Shown piece by piece: positions 45,425-59,611 of a DNA stretch of 64,000 nt (position 1 is the stretch's first letter; each line of letters begins with the position of its first letter). The position numbers and the translations under genes are program-made. This DNA is from Anaerolineae bacterium (GTDB lineage: Bacteria > Chloroflexota > Anaerolineae > UBA1429). Where the stretch lies: positions 864,001-928,000 of the forward strand of contig OY776562.1 in NCBI GenBank assembly GCA_963675785.1, in the 5' to 3' direction. The notes under the pieces were generated by a model that made no database searches, was not told where the DNA came from, and saw only the letters and a program-made list of their open reading frames with translations.

Positions 45425-47290
45425 TTAGCGCACAATGACTCGGTAGCCGGTGCGGAAATAGAAATGAGGAGCTAGCGGCGCCTGCAGCAGGCAGCGCACA
45501 AAGCCCTCTTTATCGTAGGTGGGCGTCAGGCTCATGGAAATGGGTTCGCCCATATCGATGGTTAGAACGGCCTTGCCACGCCGCTCGATGGTGAGATAGC
45601 GGGTAACAATGCCGAGCAACCGCTCGCTCATGCTTTCTGCACGGCAGCGTCCGTAATCCATCACCAGTTCGTCGGTGGCACGCAGCAGCAAGGGGATGCA
45701 TTCCAATAACATGCGTCCGTCAGACGAAGCCTGGCCCTGAATCTGTACGTCGATGCCATCTGGCCGTACGATATAGGCTTTGCCAACCCCCAATTCGCTA
45801 TAATGCAGCCACATCTCGATGCCGCCGCGGCCTTCTCTGGTTTCGGCGTTGGCCAAAGCCTTGCCCGTACCCAGCTCACTGTTCATCAAGCGCGTTTCCC
45901 AGGCCGGGCCCTCGCCGTTGTGGGCCAAGATGATTGTGCCAGCGTCGGGGGTCCACAAATGAGCCGGACCGTACTGAGCTGCGGTGCGCTTTTGGCCAAA
46001 GGCAAAGGCTGTGGTGTAACGGGCACCGTTGTAAAAGACGTATTGATTGCCGCGATCATCGTCGAATAGCTCTGCCTGTCCGTTGGGATTGTTGCAGGGC
46101 AGTGAGGCTCGAGCTCGAGCCAATTCGTCGGTGGTTGGAGCATAGATCGGACAAGCCGATTCAGTGGATACGGGCGGATAGCCCAGCGAGCGGGTATCTT
46201 CCAGCACCTGAGCAAGGGCCTGCTGTGGGTTGGCCGCGATGGCGTTCTGGTATGATTCGATCTTTTCTTGGCTGAGGAGCATGAGCCGCAGCGGATCGGC
46301 CAGGTGCCCCGCTGCCTCGACTAGAGAGGATGCGCCTTTTTGAGCCGCCTGTTGTGAGCCCAGAAAAGAACGCGCATGGCCTACGCCAAGGCGTCCAGGA
46401 TCGACCAGATAGGCGCCCTTGCTGGCGGTACGCGTCTGGTGGGAGGCCGAAAGGAGAATGTGGTCGCTGTCGGGCTCGGTCAGCATCCAGCGGCTCATCC
46501 ATTCACAGTGTCGGGTAAAGGCTTCGAGCACGCGCTTGTCGGGCCACTCTTCATAGAGCGGCGCCAGCCGCTTGAGCGAGACAAAGAAATAGGAAAAGGT
46601 CTCGGGGCCATCGGCCTCGTATAAAAAGCCCATGGGCGAGATGAAATCCTGCACCAGGGCATCACCTGCCGCTGTCACCATGTCCATCAGCTCGTCATCA
46701 TCGGTCAAGCGTGCCAAGCGAGCACCACCGGCCATGGCCCCCAGAAACTGGTTGGTGTACGAACGGGCGTGTTCCCAGGATTCATCCGAGGTGAGCACAT
46801 AGACCGCTGCTTTGCGAGCATATTCACAGAGCCGACTCTTGAGTGGTTCTGGCAGCACAGGGCCCGCTGCCTCCAGCGCGGCGCTCATATACTCCATGCC
46901 AAAACTGCTGGGAGCCAGCATGGGTGTATCGAGTTCGGCCGGGGCGTATTCGGGGATGGCGCCGTTTTCAGCCATACGGGCAAAGGTGTATTCCAGCGTC
47001 AGTTCGAGGCGCTTGAGCACCTCCGCATTGCGATAGTAGGGATTCCAGGGGGCGTTGTACCCGTAAAAAAAGGCCAGCGAGAAATAGTTTTCCATGACGC
47101 GGCAGTTAAAGGGGGCATACGAATAATGCCGCCACAATGCTTCTTTGAACCAACCCTGCAGGGGGCCGGGCTCTACCTCAACTGCGTTGGCCATTCTGGC
47201 AAAGTTGGCCAGGTGAAACAAGAGATCATATTCCTCGGGATTCCACTGGTTTATATCGATGTGCGAGACGGGAGTAATGGCAGCTGACAT
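45425..47290 (-). CDS. Hypothetical protein (621 aa)
   Basis: Long ORF with SD ggagg; helical N-terminal half and beta-rich C-terminal half; no family recognised. Confidence 0.75.
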   Translation of the reverse strand: MSAAITPVSHIDINQWNPEEYDLLFHLANFARMANAVEVEPGPLQGWFKEALWRHYSYAPFNCRVMENYFSLAFFYGYNAPWNPYYRNAEVLKRLELTLEYTFARMAENGAIPEYAPAELDTPMLAPSSFGMEYMSAALEAAGPVLPEPLKSRLCEYARKAAVYVLTSDESWEHARSYTNQFLGAMAGGARLARLTDDDELMDMVTAAGDALVQDFISPMGFLYEADGPETFSYFFVSLKRLAPLYEEWPDKRVLEAFTRHCEWMSRWMLTEPDSDHILLSASHQTRTASKGAYLVDPGRLGVGHARSFLGSQQAAQKGASSLVEAAGHLADPLRLMLLSQEKIESYQNAIAANPQQALAQVLEDTRSLGYPPVSTESACPIYAPTTDELARARASLPCNNPNGQAELFDDDRGNQYVFYNGARYTTAFAFGQKRTAAQYGPAHLWTPDAGTIILAHNGEGPAWETRLMNSELGTGKALANAETREGRGGIEMWLHYSELGVGKAYIVRPDGIDVQIQGQASSDGRMLLECIPLLLRATDELVMDYGRCRAESMSERLLGIVTRYLTIERRGKAVLTIDMGEPISMSLTPTYDKEGFVRCLLQAPLAPHFYFRTGYRVIVR

Positions 47291-50216: not shown

Positions 50217-50705
50217 ATGAGCGGTGCGTTCGAGTTCAATGACCCTCTGTTTGATGTGCCCGCGTCGGCTCTGGAAGCGGACCCGGAAGCACAGATCCGC
50301 GAGCTGCTCTATCGTGTCAGCCAGCTAGAGGCGACATTAGCCGAGGAGCGGATGCAGAATGAGCAGGATATCAAAGAGTTGTTGCTCACGCATATCGCTG
50401 TGGCGGATGACGTGCGTGCGCTGCTGGAGCGTGTCGGCGTGCCGACAACAGCCTCTGAGGCCTTCCTTTCGCGCAACCTGAGTGCTCTTGGTTCCAAGGC
50501 GGCTGCTATTCTCAAGCGTTTTGGCGTAGAGCCGATCCACCTAACCGGGCAGCCTGCTGACCCCGATCTGTGTGATGTTGTGGGGGAGCGGGTTTCTGAC
50601 TTTCCGGCTGGTATGGTGTTGCGAGAGGACATGGCGGGGTATCGTTGGAGGCGCGGCGTTCTGCGCAAGGGCCATGTTACTGTATCGCGGGGGAGGGATG
50701 GTTGA
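50217..50705 (+). CDS. GrpE-like nucleotide exchange factor
   Basis: Coiled coil, then GVEPI..GQPADP..C.VV...GY....VLRKGHVTV, matching the GrpE head but divergent. Confidence 0.75.
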   Translation: MSGAFEFNDPLFDVPASALEADPEAQIRELLYRVSQLEATLAEERMQNEQDIKELLLTHIAVADDVRALLERVGVPTTASEAFLSRNLSALGSKAAAILKRFGVEPIHLTGQPADPDLCDVVGERVSDFPAGMVLREDMAGYRWRRGVLRKGHVTVSRGRDG

Positions 50706-51157
50706 TGGCCGGTCCCGTGATTCAGATCAAGTGTCCCTATTGCTCTAGCCTGTTACCTGCGGGCGAGACCATTTGCCCTGCTTGTCAGGAGGATCTGTCT
50801 GCCTTGGTCAAGCTGGCTTATGAGCATGTCATTCTTTATAATGAGGGCCTGGTATTTGCGCGTCAGGGCCGATTGACTGCGGCTCGCGACAGTTTGTTAC
50901 AAGCCATGGCGCTGATGCCCAGTTTCGCGCCGGCTCATATCGTGTTAGCCAAGGTATATGTTCATTTGGGGGATTGGCCTTCTGCGCTAGAGATGGCCGA
51001 GCGAGCCTATGCGCTGGCGCCGGGGGCGGATACGAACGGGTTACGCCAGGCTATTGCGGCCCATATCTTGACGCCCAGCGTTAGAACTGAACCGGTACAA
51101 GAGACAGAGCATCACGACGCTCAGTGGTGGAAGCGCAAACTTAGAGGTGAAGTGTAA
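50705..51157 (+). CDS. Zinc-ribbon + TPR protein
   Basis: CPYC..CPAC, then YNEGL..ARQG and AHIVLAKVY TPR units; TGATG overlap with the GrpE-like gene. Confidence 0.8.
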   Translation: MAGPVIQIKCPYCSSLLPAGETICPACQEDLSALVKLAYEHVILYNEGLVFARQGRLTAARDSLLQAMALMPSFAPAHIVLAKVYVHLGDWPSALEMAERAYALAPGADTNGLRQAIAAHILTPSVRTEPVQETEHHDAQWWKRKLRGEV

Positions 51158-51187
51158 CGAGGGAGCCGTTAAGGCTCCCTCGTTTTA
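51156..51187. terminator. Terminator between convergent operons
   Basis: aacgagggagcc-gttaa-ggctccctcgtt-ttatt. Confidence 0.8.
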
Positions 51188-53107
51188 TTATCTGGCGATA
51201 GCTTTCCAGGCTCCTCGGATGAGGCCGATGAGCAGCCCGATGACGCTGGTTATTGAATAGGCTGCCACAACGAGCCCAATCCAGGCAGCCGGAGGTGAGG
51301 CACCGGCAACGAGGATGCGCTCCAGATGAGCGATGAGCGGTTCTGCGGCCAGGGTAATGCCAAACAGCGATAGTACTTGATCGGCCTGGGTGGGTAGCAT
51401 ATAAGCGCCGTATAAAAGCAACCCAGAGAGTACAATCCAAAGAATGGCAACCAGCCAAGGGCGGTTATCAAAAGGCTTGTGCACCCTGGCAATGGCGGTT
51501 GTGATCGCTTTTTGGCCCGTGCGCATGGTCGACCAGGCACCGGGCACAGCGCCAGAGATGAGGCGTTTGAGCAGGCGCAAGGCTTCTCGCCAGAGGCTTA
51601 CCGTTGCCGTAACTGGCACCCGAACGGGATCGCGATCATCAGTCTCGATGATGACATTGCCTATCTGTTCTTTGCGAAAGGGCAAGTCTTCGGCATGAAC
51701 GTGTGCGGTGATGTTGGTGGGGATCCCCTTCCAAATGTGAAGCGTTGCTGGCTGCACCTCAAGCCAGGGCACATCAGCACTGAGCCGAGCAACAGTATAG
51801 CCTCGGGTGGCATTATGCAGGGTAGTATGGCGAATCAGTGCCGATTCGCGTGCAACTTTGCCCAACTCGATTTTCTCTGGGCGAGCGAGGATACGCGGCG
51901 TGGTCAAACCCATATCTACCCGGCGCAGGAATTGCTCCAAGCCAGCATCATGGTTCTTTTCCGAAGTGATGATCTCATCGCCGGCGATGACCAGGTCGAG
52001 ACGGTTGATATCGCGCAGCCAGCGCTGCAGGTCGCCTTTGTAAAGGAACGACTTGGCAGCATCCCAATGATCGTCGCAGAGGGAAGGCAGTGCCGAGACA
52101 CTGCGTATTTGCGTGCCGCCGGGAAAGGTAAAGGATTGCAGCTGGCGTTGAGGCATGGTCAGCGCTTCGAGCGCTTCACGCAGTTCTCGCACGGTGCTGC
52201 GCCGCGTTGGATCGGTGCGCAGGGCACGCTGCAGGGCCACAGAAAGTTCACGCGGCAACTGAGACAGGCGTGGCCACTTGAAAGGGTGATTGGTCGGATC
52301 GTCATCGGTAAGTAGATGGTAAGCAGTAGCGGCCAGGCCAAAGACATCCGAGGCGGCTTGCGGCATAGAGCGGTATTGTTCTGGTGCAGCATAGCCGCTG
52401 GTGCCATAGTTGTCTTCGCTGCCGTTGGCGGGTGTTGCAGCGTTGGCAGCTGCATCGGCTGTATGAGCCAGACGGGCTTTGGTAGCGCTTACTTTGGCGG
52501 TGCCAAAGTCTACCAGGCGGGAAAAGCCAAGCTGCTGTTCGACAATGATGTTGGCAGGTTTTACGTCGCCGTGGATGACCGGACGAGGACGCGAATGCAG
52601 GTATTCGAGAATCTGGCAGACCTCGATGATATAGCGAAGCGCTTCCTCCATGGGCAAGGATTGCGCCAGTACATGTTGTCCTTGTGAATCGGCATGGGTT
52701 ACAAAAGATTCCAGGGTTTCGCCCTGAATGTACTCCATGACAAGATAGTAACGGCCATCTTCTTGGAAAAAGGTATAGATTTCGGGGATGCCAGGATGGG
52801 CCAGGCCGGCCAGGGTTCGTCCCTCTTCTTCAAAACGTTCACGCGCCGCCTCCTTTTCCTCAAGGTCGGCAGCGTCATAATATTCGAGCATCTGCTTGAT
52901 GACGCAAAGCCGCTCAAAAGCCCGTTGATCTCGGGCAAGATAAACTGCACCCATGCCGCCGCGGGTAAGGCTGCGAACAATGACATAACTACCGTTTTGC
53001 AGCGCAGACCCCGAAGGGAGCCGCGCATCGAGGCGGCTCCCGCAGACTGGGCAAAATCTGGCCTCCGGACGTGCCGGTTGGCTGCAAACAGGGCAAAGAC
53101 GCGTCAC
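51188..53107 (-). CDS. Ser/Thr protein kinase (non-RD) with N-terminal zinc ribbon, Ig/BACON-like domain and C-terminal TM helices
   Basis: CPVC..FCPVCG; GGMGAVY, VIK, HGDVKPAN, DFG, YAAPEQ; ADVPWLEV; hydrophobic C-terminus. Confidence 0.9.
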   Translation of the reverse strand: MTRLCPVCSQPARPEARFCPVCGSRLDARLPSGSALQNGSYVIVRSLTRGGMGAVYLARDQRAFERLCVIKQMLEYYDAADLEEKEAARERFEEEGRTLAGLAHPGIPEIYTFFQEDGRYYLVMEYIQGETLESFVTHADSQGQHVLAQSLPMEEALRYIIEVCQILEYLHSRPRPVIHGDVKPANIIVEQQLGFSRLVDFGTAKVSATKARLAHTADAAANAATPANGSEDNYGTSGYAAPEQYRSMPQAASDVFGLAATAYHLLTDDDPTNHPFKWPRLSQLPRELSVALQRALRTDPTRRSTVRELREALEALTMPQRQLQSFTFPGGTQIRSVSALPSLCDDHWDAAKSFLYKGDLQRWLRDINRLDLVIAGDEIITSEKNHDAGLEQFLRRVDMGLTTPRILARPEKIELGKVARESALIRHTTLHNATRGYTVARLSADVPWLEVQPATLHIWKGIPTNITAHVHAEDLPFRKEQIGNVIIETDDRDPVRVPVTATVSLWREALRLLKRLISGAVPGAWSTMRTGQKAITTAIARVHKPFDNRPWLVAILWIVLSGLLLYGAYMLPTQADQVLSLFGITLAAEPLIAHLERILVAGASPPAAWIGLVVAAYSITSVIGLLIGLIRGAWKAIAR

Positions 53108-54099
53108 TAGTTTATCCTAAAGATGAATTTGACCCGGCCAGCCTGGATCTCGTCACCATCCTGCAGAGGCATACGCACGCCGGGCTGCAGCCTGGTCTGA
53201 TTGACGATGGTCAGGTTGGTGCTGTTCAGGTCCTCGATGGTGTACTGGTTGCCGATACCGTTGATTTTAAAGTGTCGGCGGGAAACGCCGCCATCTTCTC
53301 CGCCGTGCGGGGTCAGGTCGATATCGGGATAGATGCCGCTATAAGGGTCCTCACGGCCCACAACTGTCTCTGAACCAGCGGCAAGTGGCAGCTCTGTATT
53401 GTTGGCAACGACTACCAGCCGTGCGCTGCTCACTGTGGGAGCGGCGGTTAAGGGCTCGGCAAAGGCTTCTTGCGGTGCGCCAATGACGGCAGCACCACAG
53501 AACGGGCAAAAGGCCTGACCTTCAGGAACCTGGGCACCACAGGCTGCACAAATGGGGCTGGGTTGCGCTACAGCATCTACTGGCTCAACAGCCTGAATTG
53601 GTGCAGGCGCGGGAATCGGTTTGGTGGCTGGGGCAGCGGGTTGAGCGATCGTTGCGCCACCTGCAAGTTGTGCGCCGCAGGCATAGCAGAATTCGTCTTT
53701 GGGATTGGCTGCCGCACCACAGAACGGACACTGACCTTTTGATGCAGTTGCGACTGTTACAGGTTCAGGTGTCGCAACAGGTTCAGGTGCTGCGACAGGC
53801 TCGGGGGTTGGGGCAGCCAACCGAGAGCCGCACTCTGAACAAAACATCTCGCCAGGTGTTACAGATGCGCCGCACGAGGGACAGAGGTCAGCCTGAGACT
53901 GCATTGGTTGTGGCATGGGCATAGGTTGTGGCGCTGCCGGTGGTGCCACTGGCGGTGTCACCGCAGGGGCGGCAGGTATTGGCGCGACTGCAGCAGGTTG
54001 AGCTGCCGGTGCCTGTTGTTCCGAAAGGCGTGCGCCGCACTGATCGCAAAAAACTGCATCATCTGGAGACTTGTTTCCGCAGCGACTGCAGATAATCAT
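53107..54099 (-). CDS. FHA-domain protein with four zinc-ribbon units
   Basis: Four CxxC-x10-CxxC units separated by Pro/Ala linkers; VGRED, GVSRRH, DLNSTN. Confidence 0.92.
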   Translation of the reverse strand: MIICSRCGNKSPDDAVFCDQCGARLSEQQAPAAQPAAVAPIPAAPAVTPPVAPPAAPQPMPMPQPMQSQADLCPSCGASVTPGEMFCSECGSRLAAPTPEPVAAPEPVATPEPVTVATASKGQCPFCGAAANPKDEFCYACGAQLAGGATIAQPAAPATKPIPAPAPIQAVEPVDAVAQPSPICAACGAQVPEGQAFCPFCGAAVIGAPQEAFAEPLTAAPTVSSARLVVVANNTELPLAAGSETVVGREDPYSGIYPDIDLTPHGGEDGGVSRRHFKINGIGNQYTIEDLNSTNLTIVNQTRLQPGVRMPLQDGDEIQAGRVKFIFRIN

Positions 54100-54116
54100 G
54101 GTGAGCTCCTTGTGTT

Positions 54117-55388
54117 CTATTCGTCTTCCAGGGGAAGATCAACGAGTTTTTGAGTCAACTTGCGCGTTTCGTAACGAAGCCGCTTGGTGCCGCCCTGAGA
54201 CATCTGGCCGCTCTGTTCGAGATTATCGGCCTCCTGACTGGCAGCCTGGGCCAGGTCATCTTCGCCGAGTTCGAGCAGACGTGTAGCTGCGGCACGTAGT
54301 TTCATGGTGGCGCCAGCCACGTTGCCCAGTTTGGCTTCTTCAAGCGCCCGCGTTTGCAGGCGGTAGACAGTAACCTTTTCTACAATATTCATGATGCGCG
54401 AATCGTATTGACTCGTCAATGCCGGGTTACCGGTGTATTCGATGACGATATCATTGCGCACAGATTCACCTGTGCGCTGCTGAAGCGGCGCATCATAGGT
54501 GATCTCGCCTTGGGCGACGCGATAACGCCCTTCGGGGCGGGCGGGCAGCAGCAACTCAATGAGCACCGACTTGCCATCTTCGGCATCCAGATCGCCAAGC
54601 TGTACTTGCACGTCATGTTCGCCAAGGGGTGTATAGCCCAGGTTTGAGATGACGGGTGTGACCTGCCAGACCTGGCGGGGCACTACGCCCGATACGAGTC
54701 GCAGAGTCATGTAGGCATTGCGCATTACGGCCTTTTGCGAGCGTTCGACGGTCTGCGTAAAGAAAGGAACGATGTCATCGGCGGTCGAAACCATGTCTGA
54801 GCTGCCTCCGCTGAGGCGGCCGATCTCGTCCAGCAGGTTTTCGTTCCACTGTTCACCCAGGCCAAGTGCCTGAATTTGAATGCGGTGCTCGCCAGCCTCT
54901 TTTGCCAGACGCAAACACTGCGCCTCATCGCCATAGGTTTGGCCGTCGGTCATCAGCAACACCTGATTAGAGCGCGTCTCATCCCACTGGCGGTACACTT
55001 GGCGCAGCCCAAGTGACAAGCCGCGGGACATTTGTGTGCCACCACCGGCTCGCAGTTCGCGAATGGTGTTGTTTAGGGCACTCTGCCGCTGCAATGGTGA
55101 GTTGGAGGCTACGACTTTGGCTGCGTCGTTAAAGATGGTGACCGAAACGAGATCTTCGGGGGCCATCTTGGAGACAGCCATTAGCATAGCCTCTTTGAGG
55201 CGGTCGATCTTGGCGCCGCGCATCGAGCCGCTATGATCCAGCACAAAGCCAAAGTTTAGCGGCATGCGCTTTTGGGCAATCACCTGTGTGGGGCGCGCCT
55301 CAACCAGGACATAGACGAGCTGCTGTGTGCTCGAAACCGGGATATGCAATTTGTTTAGTGAAATGCCGAGTTCCAGTTCTCCGGACAT
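54117..55388 (-). CDS. vWA-domain protein
   Basis: MIDAS DHSGSM, GGT, LMTDGQ; C-terminal helical tail ending TKRLRYETRKLT. Confidence 0.92.
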   Translation of the reverse strand: MSGELELGISLNKLHIPVSSTQQLVYVLVEARPTQVIAQKRMPLNFGFVLDHSGSMRGAKIDRLKEAMLMAVSKMAPEDLVSVTIFNDAAKVVASNSPLQRQSALNNTIRELRAGGGTQMSRGLSLGLRQVYRQWDETRSNQVLLMTDGQTYGDEAQCLRLAKEAGEHRIQIQALGLGEQWNENLLDEIGRLSGGSSDMVSTADDIVPFFTQTVERSQKAVMRNAYMTLRLVSGVVPRQVWQVTPVISNLGYTPLGEHDVQVQLGDLDAEDGKSVLIELLLPARPEGRYRVAQGEITYDAPLQQRTGESVRNDIVIEYTGNPALTSQYDSRIMNIVEKVTVYRLQTRALEEAKLGNVAGATMKLRAAATRLLELGEDDLAQAASQEADNLEQSGQMSQGGTKRLRYETRKLTQKLVDLPLEDE

Positions 55389-55412
55389 TGCGATCTCCTT
55401 ACAAAATAGGTG

Positions 55413-56732
55413 CTAGGCTCTGGAAAGACGCACCACAATAACCGATATATTGTCTTCTCCACCGGCGAGGTTGGCCAGACGGATTAGTTCGTTGGCGGCT
55501 CGCGTAGGATCCATCTCTGTCAGCATGATGCGCTCAATGCCATCATCGCGAACCATCTCCCACAAGCCATCAGAACAGAGAATTAACCGATCTCCATCTT
55601 GCAGAATTTGCTCAAAGGTATCGGGCTTGATGTTGGGCCCATCGCCAATGCTCTGGTAGATCAGATTGCGTTGCGGATGGGAATAGGCATCTTCGCGGCT
55701 GATTTGCTTGGCATCGATGAGCTGCTGAACCAACGAGTGGTCGTGAGAAATCTGGCGCAGCCCCGATGCGTTCCACAGATAGGTACGGCTGTCGCCGACA
55801 TTCGCCACAAAAGCTCGCGAGTTGGAGATGAGCGCCATGGTGACTGTGGTGCTCATGGATGATCCGGCTTCAGTACGTTCGCTCAACACGGCATCGTTTG
55901 CCGCGATGACGCTCTCGGACAAAGATTTTTCAAGTTGTTCGTTGTCCAGCGTTTGTCCGGCCAGCAGCGGCTCCCATACGGCCTGGCGCATCGACTTCCA
56001 GATCGTCGTTGTGGTCAGTTTGCTGGCCACTTCTCCCGAATCCTGGCCGCCGAGGCCATCGGCTACGATGAAAAGGCCCAGACTGGCGCCGGCAGAGTCC
56101 GTGTAAAGGTGCCCCTCGACATAATCCTCATTGTGGTCGCGTGTGATGCCCTTGTCTGTAGCCCAACCCCAGGTGATCTTGAGCGGAAGCAGTTCATTGA
56201 TCTGCTCTTGCTCAACTCGCTCGATTTGATCAAGGGTCAAATAGTATTCGCGGTTGCCCACAGTAAAGGACAGATCAAAGCTATCGGGGGTGGAGGGCAC
56301 TTTTTCGACAAGGGTGGCATAGACCGGCTCGTTGAGATCCGCGCCGCAATCCAGGCAAAAGCGGTCGCCGCGCGTATTATCATCATAGCCGCAGTGCGGG
56401 CATCGGCACCAGTCGCGCACGCGATACGTGTTGAGGTTGTTCGTCTGCTCGATCACTTCTAACACTTCAAAGCGTTCGCCCAGCATATTGCCAGGTTCTA
56501 ATGACGCAGTCTGCGCCTCGGAGGTTAAAGGCACCTCGGGGCTTTCCTGAGCCTCTTGGCTTTTCGTTTCTATGGCTTGTGGGTTGTCTTTGCTGGCATC
56601 AGGTTCAGGTGATGCTGGCAAGGGTGAGCCGCAGAATGCGCAAAATGCTGCACTCTGGCGATTCTCACTCTGGCAGGCTGGACACTTCATGCTGGCCTCT
56701 TTTCTATTTCGGGCAAAAAGCCGAGTTATCAT
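55413..56732 (-). CDS. PP2C-family Ser/Thr phosphatase with two zinc ribbons
   Basis: RDHNED, VADGLGG, NVGDSR, DHS, LCSDGL, GGEDNIS; N-terminal CPAC..FCAFC and CPHC..FCLDC. Confidence 0.93.
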   Translation of the reverse strand: MITRLFARNRKEASMKCPACQSENRQSAAFCAFCGSPLPASPEPDASKDNPQAIETKSQEAQESPEVPLTSEAQTASLEPGNMLGERFEVLEVIEQTNNLNTYRVRDWCRCPHCGYDDNTRGDRFCLDCGADLNEPVYATLVEKVPSTPDSFDLSFTVGNREYYLTLDQIERVEQEQINELLPLKITWGWATDKGITRDHNEDYVEGHLYTDSAGASLGLFIVADGLGGQDSGEVASKLTTTTIWKSMRQAVWEPLLAGQTLDNEQLEKSLSESVIAANDAVLSERTEAGSSMSTTVTMALISNSRAFVANVGDSRTYLWNASGLRQISHDHSLVQQLIDAKQISREDAYSHPQRNLIYQSIGDGPNIKPDTFEQILQDGDRLILCSDGLWEMVRDDGIERIMLTEMDPTRAANELIRLANLAGGEDNISVIVVRLSRA

Positions 56733-58135
56733 CTTGTTTCAAACACCACGAGCACGCGGCCCATACGGACGCGATCGCCCGATTGCAGGGGGTAGGGTTG
56801 CCGCGGCTCTAGTTTTTTTCCGTTTATATAGGTGCCATTTGTATCTGGTAGGGCAATCAAGTAATAACGATCATTGTATACGATTCGACAGTGATTACGC
56901 GATATATAACCATGCGGATCATGGGTACCCAGGTCAATATCGACGGGCAGATCACCGCCGCGCCGACCGACAAGGGTGAACTTGTCTTGAAGCGGGTATT
57001 CGCGAGCCATGGTGCCAGTAGCTTCGGTCTGCAAGATGCGAAGCAAGCCCCGTACTCGCTCAGCCAACACCCGTCCGCAGTTCATACAATACTGCGCGTT
57101 TGCACGATTGGCTGCCCTGCATACTGGACAAAGGATCATTTGTATCGGTTTGGCCAATCCTGGCTCGGTCACTGTATTGGGTGCAGCAGGTGGGATTGTT
57201 GCTGTGGGTTCAGGTATAAACTGGCCCATCCGTCTGGCCTGGGCCTGCACTGTCCGCGTTCGCCGCTCGCAACGCTGTCTCTCAATCCAGGGAAGACAGG
57301 CGAGCAGGTCGGCTCGCATAGCCTGTGCCGATTGATAGCGGTGGGCTCGCTGCGGCTCCATGGCCTTTTCGATGACGCTGGCCATCTCTTCGGAGATGGC
57401 TGGATTGTAGGTGCGGGCGGGCACAGGGGTTTCGGGCACAAAAGCTGGCAATGGTGCTATGTTAGCCAGTAAATGGTACAATGTGGCCCCCAGGCTGTAA
57501 ATATCTGCACGAGGATCGGTCTGAGTTTTACCCCATTGCTCAGGGGCGGCATAGTTTTCCGAGCCCATGGTTACCGTATCCTGGCGTTTGCCCGCTTTGT
57601 AGGTTCGGGCAATGCCAAAATCGATGAGTTTGACGATGCCTTGCGGGGTTACCATGATGTTGCTCGGCTTGAGATCTCGAAAGATGACCGGTTGTGATCG
57701 TGTGTGCAAGTACTCGAGTACATCGCACACCTGAACGGCCCAATCGATGACGGTGTCTTCCAAGAGAGGGGCCTGGGCTTTTTCCAGGCTCTTTTGCAAG
57801 GATTCGCCAGTTACAAATTCCATGACCAAGTAGCTGCGTCCCCGCTCTTGAAAATAGGCGGCTACGCGCGGCAGGTTGGGATGGGCGAGCCGCACCAGGA
57901 TGTTGGCCTCTTGCTCAAAGAGATCCTGGGCTTCGTCTACCTGATTCTGCGTGCCGTCTTGGGCGCGCAACTCTTTGAGTGCCCAGATATGCGAATTGCC
58001 ATCGGGCAGTACTTCACGAATTTGGTAGATCCAGGCCATACCGCCGCCAGCAACGAGCCGCATGATGCGGTACTTTTCTCGGAGCAGCGTGCCTTCTGTG
58101 AGTGGCCCTGTGGTACCGGAATGTATGGCTGCCAT
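56729..58135 (-). CDS. Ser/Thr protein kinase with zinc ribbon and C-terminal FHA domain
   Basis: GGGMA, ALKE, FRDLKPSN, DFG, YAAPEQ; CPVC..YCMNC; VGR, ISRNH, TNGTYING. Confidence 0.93.
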   Translation of the reverse strand: MAAIHSGTTGPLTEGTLLREKYRIMRLVAGGGMAWIYQIREVLPDGNSHIWALKELRAQDGTQNQVDEAQDLFEQEANILVRLAHPNLPRVAAYFQERGRSYLVMEFVTGESLQKSLEKAQAPLLEDTVIDWAVQVCDVLEYLHTRSQPVIFRDLKPSNIMVTPQGIVKLIDFGIARTYKAGKRQDTVTMGSENYAAPEQWGKTQTDPRADIYSLGATLYHLLANIAPLPAFVPETPVPARTYNPAISEEMASVIEKAMEPQRAHRYQSAQAMRADLLACLPWIERQRCERRTRTVQAQARRMGQFIPEPTATIPPAAPNTVTEPGLAKPIQMILCPVCRAANRANAQYCMNCGRVLAERVRGLLRILQTEATGTMAREYPLQDKFTLVGRRGGDLPVDIDLGTHDPHGYISRNHCRIVYNDRYYLIALPDTNGTYINGKKLEPRQPYPLQSGDRVRMGRVLVVFETR

Positions 58136-58263
58136 GCACTTCTCTTGCTGTTTTCCTCGAATCAGTAATCACTTTACGTATTCGCTGCGCCCGGGGTTGC
58201 AGCATTCGCAAATTTGAAGCATTCTATTGGCACGTAAATTCGCGTCGTGGAGGGAATGCGCAA

Positions 58264-58758
58264 ATGAGCTACTGGGATAGCGCACTGCGGCTAATCGTTG
58301 CAGCATTATTGGGCGGAATTATTGGCTATGAACGTGAGACAGCTGGAAAACCTGCGGGGCTTCGTACGCAGTTGCTGGTGTCCATGGCTTCGGCGCTCTA
58401 TGTGGTTTCTTCTCAATATGCTGCTGAGATGGCTGGAGAGATGCTTGATCCGGTACGGGCTATGACCGGTGTGGCCGGGGGCGTAGGGTTTCTGGGTGGC
58501 GGTGTCATTCTCAAAGCGCGTCGTGAGATCCATTGGCTCACCACAGCAGCTGCATTATGGGCATCTGCTGCTGTAGGAATGTGTGCCGGTTTTGGCTTGT
58601 ACGCTCTTGGTGCTACAGCCACGGTTTTGATCTTTGTTACGCTGCACTGGTTGCCGGCTCTTAGCGATTATCTGGGCGCACATCCCGAACCTCGCGTGCC
58701 CAAGGACAAGAAAAAGAACGGCGCTAGTCCTCGTCCTCCGGATCCAGATAAGAGTTGA
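58264..58758 (+). CDS. MgtC/SapB family membrane protein
   Basis: IGYERE...KPAGLRT, DP.R, GVGFLGGGVI, LTTAAALW. Confidence 0.92.
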   Translation: MSYWDSALRLIVAALLGGIIGYERETAGKPAGLRTQLLVSMASALYVVSSQYAAEMAGEMLDPVRAMTGVAGGVGFLGGGVILKARREIHWLTTAAALWASAAVGMCAGFGLYALGATATVLIFVTLHWLPALSDYLGAHPEPRVPKDKKKNGASPRPPDPDKS

Positions 58759-59611
58759 GCCGGGCATAAAGCCGGCTTGCATCATCCTGTAGCATGGGCT
58801 TTTGTGTGGCGGAAAACCGCTGCATGCAGGCCTTGTGGATTGCAGTGCCAGCCAGCCGAACTATATCAATGGCGCGTAGCGTGTATTCGTCGTCGAGTTC
58901 TCGCTTGTCCCCGATTTCATAACCCATTTTGGGGGCGGTGCTGATGTACTGACGATTGATGATGCCGCCATTGTGCACCAGAATGTTGCGAGTCGCGTAG
59001 AGCTCGTTGATATCCGCCTTGGAATACCCTTTGCCTGTAAAGGTAATATTTAGGGTTTTCTGCAGGAATTTGATCTTGTTTTGGATGGAACGAAATGCCA
59101 GGTCGTCCATCTGGCGGTCGACAAGGCTGATGATGAGCTCATCGAGGTTTGCGCGGTATTCGGCTGGTTCTCGCTGAGCTTCCTGTTCGGTTTCATTCAC
59201 TTCTGTAATGATGGACATCATGACACTGCGCGCTATATCGACGAGATAGGCCTCAAAAAGAGTGGTGACATAAATCAGGATCATGTTGTTGCCAATGTGG
59301 GTGTAATTGTGCTCGATCTCCATGCCCATTCGTGCTGTACGCACCAGGTTCTGCGCCTCTGTTACCGAGAGTTCGATGGGCGTGTCTACATCTTCTACCT
59401 GGATGACAATCTGACTATCGACGTTTTCCTGGATGATCTGTTCTATCTTACTGATGGCCTCGTCTGAAAGCCGCGATTCCTGGATCAATTCTTCAGAGAC
59501 TCGATTGGTAAGGCCATGAAAGCGCTCGAGTTGCATGCAGCCCACAACGAGTTCTTCCAAGCGGCTGTTCAGTTCATCTGCCAGTGAATAGAGCCTGGCT
59601 TCTCTTTCCAT
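58724..59611 (-). CDS. HEPN-domain protein (putative RNase)
   Basis: TLFEAYL helix and TRNILVHNGG (Rx4H) motif typical of HEPN domains. Confidence 0.7.
   Translation of the reverse strand: MEREARLYSLADELNSRLEELVVGCMQLERFHGLTNRVSEELIQESRLSDEAISKIEQIIQENVDSQIVIQVEDVDTPIELSVTEAQNLVRTARMGMEIEHNYTHIGNNMILIYVTTLFEAYLVDIARSVMMSIITEVNETEQEAQREPAEYRANLDELIISLVDRQMDDLAFRSIQNKIKFLQKTLNITFTGKGYSKADINELYATRNILVHNGGIINRQYISTAPKMGYEIGDKRELDDEYTLRAIDIVRLAGTAIHKACMQRFSATQKPMLQDDASRLYARLNSYLDPEDED

Follow-up and report, generated by a model that had tools for sequence, protein, structure and literature searches.

What does a bacterial operon do that encodes two Ser/Thr kinases, a PP2C phosphatase, a von Willebrand factor A (vWA) protein and an FHA protein, most of them carrying zinc ribbons (ZnRs)? 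The question is raised by five genes at positions 51188-58135 of a 64,000-nucleotide stretch of an Anaerolineae genome (assembly GCA_963675785.1, contig OY776562.1, positions 864,001-928,000), the whole of which we call the window. A first-pass annotation, made from the letters alone, had proposed a self-contained switch in which writers, an eraser and readers of phosphothreonine act around the vWA protein, and had linked it to the TerY-P anti-phage triad. Our analysis suggests that the operon is the bacterial equivalent of a phosphothreonine switch known from archaea, ArnA/ArnB, and that it brings its own writers and eraser, a reading to which we give a probability of about 0.7. The operon's make-up and its conserved gene order uphold the idea of a self-contained switch; phosphorylation of its members and binding between them we infer from the archaeal example. 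ArnA/ArnB is the best-understood phosphothreonine switch of archaea, and by analogy the operon appears to encode every role of the Sulfolobus version.

The list of open reading frames places all five genes on the minus strand: P0001 (56729-58135, 468 aa), P0002 (55413-56732, 439 aa), P0003 (54117-55388, 423 aa), P0004 (53107-54099, 330 aa) and P0005 (51188-53107, 639 aa, GTG start). Their coordinates and a direct reading of the sequence confirmed the tight packing described at first pass. P0001 and P0002 share an ATGA overlap, AGATGATAA, and P0004 and P0005 a TAGTG overlap, AACTAGTGACG, while the coordinates leave gaps of 24 nt between P0002 and P0003 and of 17 nt between P0003 and P0004. A regular-expression scan likewise returned exactly the eight zinc ribbons that had been counted over four of the five proteins (1+2+0+4+1 from P0001 to P0005; pattern CxxC-x10/11-CxxC, with a spacer of 10 residues in seven and 11 in one), and the kinase, PP2C, FHA and MIDAS (metal ion-dependent adhesion site) motifs are all present, in agreement with the earlier statement that the catalytic motifs are intact.

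The case for an ArnA/ArnB-like switch begins with the putative scaffold. In Sulfolobus, according to the relevant passages of PMC12852372 and PMC6509490, the zinc finger of ArnA docks on the beta-sandwich and helical bundle of ArnB, the kinase ArnC phosphorylates threonines of the bundle, the FHA domain of ArnA then binds tightly, and PP2A opposes the kinase. P0003 (54117-55388, minus strand) has a vWA domain (Pfam VWA, 1.3e-16) that reaches residue ~217 in our structural model, followed by a beta-sandwich (aa ~220-319), a helical bundle (aa ~322-408) and a disordered tail. Its MIDAS is DHSGS, with D51, S53, S55, T118 and D148; T118 and D148 are invariant in both of our vWA alignments, A1 (13 sequences) and A2 (39 sequences). 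An AlphaFold2 model built on the 39-sequence alignment displayed this three-part architecture with a pLDDT of 90.8 and a pTM of 0.85. When the model was compared with the Protein Data Bank (PDB) by Foldseek, the top matches were 4FX5 (8e-31, TM 0.72), the ArnAB complex 8S05 (2e-26) and the ArnB paralogue 5A8J (3e-21), with Sec23/Sec24 and inter-alpha-inhibitor ranking after these. VIA-align gave the same order: Z was 37.3 for 4FX5 (397 residues aligned, model residues 1-415), 31.2 for ArnB in 8S05_B (373/380 aligned with a root-mean-square deviation of 4.9, model residues 3-413) and 25.8 for ArnE/VWA2 in 5A8J (352 aligned), compared with ~22 over ~180 residues for stand-alone vWA domains. A profile made from A2 also matched 4FX5 (2.3e-27, positions 48-370) and ArnB (1.3e-23, positions 46-236) in the PDB.

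The gene that follows encodes the putative reader, P0004 (53107-54099, minus strand). Four zinc ribbons (aa 4-21, 73-90, 124-141 and 184-201), joined by Pro/Ala-rich linkers, precede a C-terminal FHA domain (aa ~246-321), and Pfam recognises Zn_Ribbon_1 in four stretches as well as FHA (5.1e-14). The GR, SxxH and N[GS]T motifs are present in both FHA domains of the operon, in P0001 and P0004. The phosphothreonine pocket of P0004 is intact, G248, R249, S273, R274, H276, T294 and N295 being invariant in 17/17 orthologues. Wherever such a gene follows the vWA gene, its product opens with a zinc ribbon (residues ~3-25) and has an FHA domain at the other end.

What might the reader bind? The first-pass annotation had drawn attention to a Thr- and basic-rich tail of the vWA protein as a possible phosphosite or FHA dock, and this tail proved to be the most conserved part of the C-terminus. 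Within the motif G-T-K-R-L-R-Y-E-T408-R-K-L411, Thr408 (codon at 54165-54167, minus strand) is invariant in 39/39 sequences of A2 and 13/13 of A1, and L411, K402 and T369 are each kept in at least 90% of A2 (n=39). In the model the last helix spans residues 398-408, with T408 at its end. FHA domains favour a hydrophobic residue at pT+3, and the spacing of T408 and L411 fits this preference. A related motif, G-T-[RA]-K-T, closes the helical part in cyanobacterial and Deinococcus vWA homologues. We infer from this conservation that T408 is a candidate phospho-acceptor and FHA dock.

These observations are consistent with the following mechanism, modelled on the archaeal one. At rest, the zinc ribbons would tether reader, kinases and phosphatase loosely to P0003, much as the zinc finger of ArnA sits on ArnB. 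P0001 and P0005 would then phosphorylate threonines of the helical bundle or tail of P0003, for which T408, in T-R-x-L, is the best candidate. A tight complex would form once the phosphothreonine is clamped by the FHA domain of P0004 (perhaps by the one in P0001 as well), and the PP2C activity of P0002 would reset it. Such a switch could alter what the MIDAS face of P0003, or the freed zinc ribbons, bind downstream; the operon itself contains no effector gene.

Several points weigh against this assignment. The archaeal module uses PP2A, where PP2C is found here, and kinases of other architectures. The match of the A2 profile to ArnB is limited to the vWA part (positions 46-236), and no Pfam family of the ArnB_C type is found in P0003 at E<=0.01 (the C-terminal domain family of ArnB is InterPro IPR040929 according to a passage of PMC12852372), which leaves a likeness of the C-terminal part that is structural only, as judged from the model. 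Moreover, the same passages describe the ArnB-type fold as widespread (YfbK; eukaryotic Sec23/24) and mostly untied to multi-site phosphorylation, and the heavy chain of inter-alpha-inhibitor likewise matched the P0003 model in VIA-align. The fold alone is thus no proof of a switch. As for the reader, the FHA domain of P0004 is nearer to GarA, OdhI and a plant FHA domain (1.9e-11 to 3e-9) than to that of ArnA (1.4e-7). A predicted complex of P0003 (alignment A2) with P0004 residues 1-100 (alignment A3) scored 0.15 and 0.19 against a mark of 0.32, in runs made without controls, figures that speak neither for nor against docking. Finally, T408 is just as invariant in the Fervidibacterota, whose vWA gene has neither a kinase or phosphatase gene nor an FHA gene within 7 kb, and the conservation of this residue could be structural. 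Although the vWA gene stands alone in the five Fervidibacterota loci, the genome encodes, at another place, a 2xZnR-FHA protein that bears the same FPDVDLTPHGG..GVSRRH signature. In one such genome, Fervidibacter G043, three consecutive FHA genes (L117:922-3226), unlinked to the ArnB-like vWA gene, encode a 2xZnR-FHA protein, a small FHA protein and an FHA protein with multiple transmembrane segments that ends in a zinc ribbon.

P0003 was used as the query in a six-frame search of 40 related genomes, 24 from the same family and 16 from other families of the class. Of the 24 same-family genomes, 20 contain an orthologue (E<=1e-175), which is 62-73% identical in those rows that were listed, and the other four (G002, G007, G021 and G024; completeness 90-95%) have none at this threshold. 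In the other families, 9/16 genomes have full-length relatives of 31-55% identity. Gene order, whose conservation had been suggested as a check at first pass, was the same in every case: in 10/10 same-family loci the five genes agree in order and strand, subject to two small exceptions, in that tblastn missed the FHA domain of the first kinase in L017 and the contig of L013 ends inside the fifth gene. Because the whole gene order recurs in this way, the five-gene arrangement is far more than chance.

The linkage extends well beyond the family. A vWA-alignment scan of species-representative genomes yielded 582 relatives, the best 80 of which were used for synteny counts; these 80 loci span Anaerolineae, Chloroflexia (Herpetosiphon, Roseiflexus), Ktedonobacterales, Caldilineaceae, Ardenticatenales, Thermoflexales, Fervidibacterota and one metagenome-assembled genome labelled Cytophagia. 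A ZnR-FHA gene lies no more than 1.5 kb downstream of the vWA gene in 63/70 loci with enough flank, the misses being L052 (FHA after a 980-nt gap), L112 and the five Fervidibacterota loci. In 58/71 loci a PP2C gene ends no more than 1 kb upstream, and a Hanks kinase adjoins in 41/48. In the 48 fully flanked loci the five-gene pattern was seen 11 times, kinase-PP2C-vWA-FHA 21 times, PP2C-vWA-FHA-kinase six times and other orders 10 times. In many related loci (L016:10629-13130, L021:11547-13199, L023:8877-11210, L034, L039, L043, L045 and L050) the fifth gene is directly followed by one or two more ZnR-kinase paralogues and in some cases by another PP2C gene, an extension that is absent from the window's genome. 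In two relatives the vWA gene has apparent in-frame stops (L061:7001-8263 and G020:C1:1368576-1369808), which may reflect a pseudogene or a sequencing error.

Across these loci, which are kin to one another, the number of zinc ribbons, counted by regular expression on the longest open reading frames, changes on all components together. Where the vWA protein is at least 41% identical to P0003, the reader has two to four ribbons (35/35), PP2C has one or two (25/28 uncut reading frames) and the upstream kinase has one (16/18). Where identity is 39% or less, the reader has exactly one (33/34), and PP2C (29/31) and the upstream kinase (29/29) have none. From these counts, the zinc ribbon appears to have multiplied on the reader and to have appeared on the enzymes in the same lineage, and the variant found in the window seems to be marked by this multiplication and by its second, membrane-anchored kinase. 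The loci being kin, the joint gain may reflect just one or a few events. The spread of the ribbon onto every enzyme suggests, in a concrete form that can be tested, how a scaffold may recruit its writers and erasers. A bolder extension, which we consider speculative and rather unlikely, is that the zinc ribbon is a shared address tag. The eight ribbons would compete for, or jointly occupy, docking sites on the ArnB-like hub, and a stoichiometric membrane 'signalosome' held by P0005 would compute its output through its composition, ZnR-docked versus FHA-phosphothreonine-clamped; on this view the multiplication and spread of ribbons would have raised the avidity of an ancient Sec23/24-like adaptor, one that controls how the envelope or the filaments of multicellular Chloroflexota are organised.

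The remaining three proteins supply the enzymes. P0001 (56729-58135, minus strand), the first presumed writer, is a soluble Hanks Ser/Thr kinase (aa ~15-290) with a zinc ribbon (aa 336-353) and a C-terminal FHA domain (aa 388-459), as recognised by Pfam (Pkinase 6.8e-41, Zn_Ribbon_1, FHA 8.6e-17). Its kinase motifs are K54, FRDLKPSN, DFG and APE, and orthologues of 49-54% identity hold the same position in same-family loci. P0002 (55413-56732, minus strand), the presumed eraser, combines two N-terminal zinc ribbons (aa 17-34 and 111-129) with a PP2C domain (aa ~190-436), all three found by Pfam (PP2C 2.5e-17), and has the motifs RDHNED, DGLGG, GDSR, SDGL and DNIS. P0005 (51188-53107, minus strand), the second presumed writer, starts with a zinc ribbon (aa 5-22) and a non-RD Hanks kinase domain (HGD; aa ~41-310; Pfam ZnR and Pkinase 2.2e-29; motifs K71, HGDVKPAN, DFG and APE). 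These are followed by a helical domain (aa ~337-397), a PapD/ASH/MSP-like beta-sandwich (aa ~406-503), a long helix and a two-helix membrane hairpin (aa ~550-638).

The architecture of P0005 bears on the earlier suggestion that the membrane kinase might sense a ligand. Hydrophobic windows are confined to residues 549-632. In an AlphaFold2 model of aa 315-639 (pLDDT 86.2) the C-terminal hairpin has a loop of ~9 residues and all folded domains lie on the kinase side, an arrangement that speaks against a sensor and, as modelled, indicates a membrane-tethered kinase rather than a receptor with an ectodomain. The sandwich matched HYDIN/ASH, PapD-like and MSP domains in Foldseek (7e-9 to 1e-5 over ~100 columns). 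An assignment of residues 320-545 to DUF5717_N was dropped: its ESM Atlas score of 0.87 fell under the 0.9 line, and folding gave the PapD/ASH/MSP-like sandwich instead.

Could the kinases and phosphatase instead be a global Ser/Thr pair of the Stk1/Stp1, PrkC/PrpC or PknB/PstP type, with the vWA and FHA proteins as mere substrates or adaptors? P0002 does match the NCBIfam Stp1/IreP equivalog NF033484, although only just (230.2 bits against a cut-off of 230, residues 192-434), its N-terminal zinc ribbons being extra. In addition, the genome has no PP2C_2 match besides this one, whereas four of the six Pkinase matches over the cut-off lie outside the operon, and P0002 probably serves those kinases too, as the cell's general PP2C eraser. 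There is a precedent in Deinococcus: its homologue DRA0334, as described in passages of a 2026 preprint (10.64898/2026.01.23.701218), dephosphorylates kinases whose genes are not part of the DRA0334 operon. However, the two kinases score far under the equivalog cut-offs (PknB_PASTA_kin 193 and 120 against 450) and have no PASTA domain, no cell-wall genes (RodA, PBP) are adjacent, and the tightest and widest linkage is that of vWA with ZnR-FHA (63/70 loci), above that of kinase with phosphatase. Furthermore, both FHA matches in the 3.2-Mb genome are inside the operon (P0001 and P0004), which would make it the cell's only apparatus for reading phosphothreonine. We regard the global pair as unlikely to be the better description, and it overlaps with the ArnAB-like reading rather than excluding it.

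We then considered whether the operon is a TerY-P-like anti-phage or stress-defence module, the link made at first pass. A PADLOC run, one of the checks that had been suggested, made no defence-system assignment. Both kinases (PD-T4-6, 5e-62; mad6) and the PP2C protein (PDC-M21C, 1e-12) had PADLOC matches, but these are generic catalytic-domain matches, and neither the vWA protein nor the ZnR-FHA protein had one at E<=0.01 (the vWA protein none at E<=10). PADLOC 2.0, we assume, contains TerY-P models. P0003 reached 19.1 bits against PF10138 (vWA-TerF-like), whose cut-off is 29.4. The triad of vWA, PP2C and Ser/Thr kinase is nevertheless that of TerY-P, and the zinc ribbon of P0001 lies C-terminal to the kinase, as in TerY-P kinases (in passages of PMC11090510); there, however, the vWA component is a TerY-like vWA domain, whereas the fold of P0003 is that of ArnB, in three parts. 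Genes for a nuclease or another effector, ter genes and mobile-element genes are absent nearby, G+C is even over the region (0.54-0.60), and the presence of a vWA orthologue in 20/24 same-family genomes fits vertical inheritance. A defence role of this kind therefore seems highly improbable to us. Since most of the family's genomes contain the vWA gene, and since FHA and PP2C_2 domains are confined to the operon in the present genome, we take the operon to be a housekeeping signalling hub, not a mobile defence system.

The surroundings of the operon fit such a setting. The flanking genes encode MgtC, solute-binding protein, M50 peptidase, TPR and GrpE-like proteins, by all appearances housekeeping genes, although the wider flanks of the window are not conserved among related loci. 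Between the P0001 gene and a divergent, plus-strand MgtC-family gene, with its ATG at about 58266, lies an intergenic region (58136-58265) that presumably holds the promoter; a promoter consensus scan gave five promoter-like sites against 5.3 expected, none above chance, this region included. At the other end, a G+C-rich hairpin with a 12-bp stem (51156-51184), between the convergent TPR gene and the P0005 gene, is a likely terminator. The same scan found 14 terminator-like sites against 9.0 expected (standard deviation 3.0), none inside the operon above chance. A GrpE-like open reading frame (PF01025, 2.3e-7, 162 aa; 50217-50705, plus strand) lies 0.5 kb downstream of the operon and overlaps the start of the TPR gene (50645-51157, plus strand). 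Among related loci, just two or three (L017, L018, L038) have GrpE-like and TPR genes close to the operon. Elsewhere in the window, two long minus-strand reading frames, 45425-47290 (621 aa) and 58724-59611 (295 aa), match no Pfam family at E<=0.001.

Homologues of the scaffold-reader pair are also found outside the Chloroflexota. A tblastn search of plasmid and secondary-replicon records returned full-length vWA homologues (96-99% coverage, ~25% identity). The Deinococcus radiodurans vWA protein, on a 412-kb replicon, is 26% identical to P0003 over residues 5-412 (E 2e-28), and its gene is followed by those for a Ser/Thr kinase, a ZnR-containing reading frame plus an FHA reading frame, and PP2C, the arrangement of DRA0331-0334. 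In the record of one D. radiodurans isolate the ZnR-FHA gene is annotated as two reading frames (L113:9175-10118), which may be due to a pseudogene or a sequencing error. On plasmid B of Trichormus variabilis the vWA gene is followed by those for ZnR-FHA and PP2C, and P0004 is 29% identical to the ZnR-FHA protein encoded there (E 8e-12). Upstream of this trio (L114:1-5488) the record annotates two more vWA genes, an ARC6/PARC6-family gene and a serine hydrolase gene. Homologues of the Trichormus vWA and ZnR-FHA proteins are common in filamentous cyanobacteria, and the zinc ribbon lies within the first 35 residues in 117/120 of the cyanobacterial FHA homologues.

This is the layout that we take FraH of Anabaena PCC 7120 to have, with a zinc ribbon at the N-terminus joined through a Pro-rich linker to an FHA domain at the C-terminus, as in P0004. 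Remarks on DRA0333 in the Deinococcus preprint, which in those passages calls it a FraH orthologue, agree with such a layout (10.64898/2026.01.23.701218). The fraH (alr1603) primers given in the available part of PMC9035410 translate to the termini MIVCPNC... and ...FLFKLA, the same style as P0004. In that part, FraH binds a phosphoprotein, Alr4359 (pT362, pT410), and a kinase and a phosphatase co-purify. The primer-derived termini of FraH were found in 0/120 cyanobacterial homologues of the Trichormus ZnR-FHA protein, and the terminal peptides of Alr4359 derived in the same way in 0/120 homologues of the Trichormus vWA protein.

A further possibility is that the operon encodes a membrane-organising, coat-like adaptor. 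The ArnB-like protein and its ZnR partners would form the Sec23/24 'core motif', and this complex, brought to the membrane by P0005, would govern the architecture of septum, filament or internal membranes in the manner of Anabaena FraH, whose loss fragments filaments and disturbs heterocyst membranes (PMC9035410, in a passage citing Merino-Puerto 2011). Sec23/Sec24 chains are among the Foldseek matches of P0003 (E ~1e-14 to 1e-13, TMq ~0.5), the title of PDB entry 8S05 names an orthologue of the Sec23/24 core motif, P0005 is predicted to be membrane-anchored with a cytoplasmic ASH/MSP-like domain, and homologous vWA/ZnR-FHA pairs are, as noted above, common in filamentous cyanobacteria. Yet P0003 resembles Sec23/24 far less than it does ArnB and 4FX5, the operon has no gene for a GTPase, a coat or membrane bending, the same module occurs in unicellular Deinococcus, and none of the 120 retrieved homologues has the termini of FraH, which leaves P0004 as no more than a candidate FraH orthologue. 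On balance we consider a coat-like role quite improbable.

We return to the ArnAB-like reading. In Chloroflexota its scaffold-reader pair forms the conserved core of an operon for Ser/Thr signalling, and the homologues in Deinococcus and cyanobacteria suggest that the ArnA/ArnB-like module is ancient and widespread. The comparison also suggests that bacterial clusters of vWA, FHA, PP2C and kinase genes are better read as ArnAB-like than as TerY-P-like defence. The present genome is a clean test case: its only two FHA domains and its single PP2C_2 domain belong to the operon, which should make genetics and phosphoproteomics unusually easy to interpret. The first-pass annotation knew of no characterisation of this architecture. 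That does not hold for the core pair, which matches the studied ArnA/ArnB module (in passages of PMC6509490 and PMC12852372), nor for the wider gene set, with a Deinococcus vWA/Ser/Thr kinase/FHA/PP2C operon treated in parts of the 2026 preprint (10.64898/2026.01.23.701218). For the five-gene, zinc-ribbon-rich arrangement, or an ArnAB-like operon in Chloroflexota, we found no publication in a literature search that had most subscription journals outside its reach.

How, then, does the operon compare with related and known systems? Other families of Anaerolineae have a sister variant, in the order Ser/Thr kinase-PQQ propeller, PP2C, J-domain-vWA and ZnR-FHA, often with an OmpR-type regulator after these. 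Its vWA protein is homologous over the full length (29-35% identity) and the order PP2C, vWA, ZnR-FHA is kept, but an N-terminal DnaJ domain (PF00226, 4.8e-21) is added to the vWA protein, the kinase bears a beta-propeller, the reader has one zinc ribbon, PP2C and kinase have none, and there is no second kinase. The J domain-vWA fusion was seen in 30/100 loci, some of them duplicated, and retains the HPD motif (e.g. L025:5889-7379 and L027:5772-7256). Both variants can coexist in one genome, for example on the contig pairs L053/L087 and L059/L089. An Hsp70 gene lies one or two genes from the vWA gene in L027 (8944-10860) and in Fervidibacter L066 (3763-5673), and a chaperone link of the ArnB-like family is possible. 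As part of the present operon, an Hsp70 link was rejected: GrpE-like and TPR neighbours occur in two or three loci only and P0003 has no J domain.

The Deinococcus operon DRA0331-DRA0334 likewise joins vWA, a transmembrane Ser/Thr kinase, a protein running from zinc ribbon to FHA and PP2C, and the product of its FHA gene starts with a zinc ribbon as here. It differs in its order (vWA-kinase-FHA-PP2C), in having one kinase instead of two, and in a PP2C with a KI-FHA domain in place of zinc ribbons. Its PP2C and FHA protein, which were studied biochemically, act antagonistically on kinases according to the preprint, whose passages on this operon neither treat the vWA protein experimentally nor name it ArnB-like (10.64898/2026.01.23.701218). 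With TerY-P (Anantharaman 2012 and Gao 2020, by way of passages of PMC11090510) the operon has in common a vWA protein, PP2C and a Ser/Thr kinase with a C-terminal zinc ribbon (residues 336-353 of P0001); it differs in a vWA protein that is not TerY-like and has the extra beta-sandwich and helical bundle, in its FHA readers, and in a context of core genome, not defence island. The best structural and sequence match to P0003 over three domains is 4FX5 (Caci_2163 of Catenulispora acidiphila), a structural-genomics entry with no known function.

The closest system is the ArnA/ArnB module of Sulfolobus acidocaldarius (kinases ArnC and ArnD, phosphatase PP2A; PDB 8S05, 5A8I and 5A8J; in passages of PMC6509490 and PMC12852372). 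P0003 and ArnB are just ~17% identical in sequence, and the former, as described, matches no ArnB_C family. The window's operon is bacterial, with writers and eraser in the same operon, one kinase having its own FHA domain and the other being membrane-anchored, and there is no archaellum to regulate. Its reader has four zinc ribbons against one in ArnA, and ribbons are also found on both kinases and the phosphatase. In each, however, the scaffold consists of a vWA domain with an intact MIDAS, a beta-sandwich and a C-terminal helical bundle whose helical part contains conserved threonines; the adjoining gene (P0004, 17 nt after P0003) encodes a protein that runs from a Cys4 zinc ribbon at the N-terminus through a flexible linker to a C-terminal FHA domain; and Hanks kinases and a Ser/Thr phosphatase go with the module.

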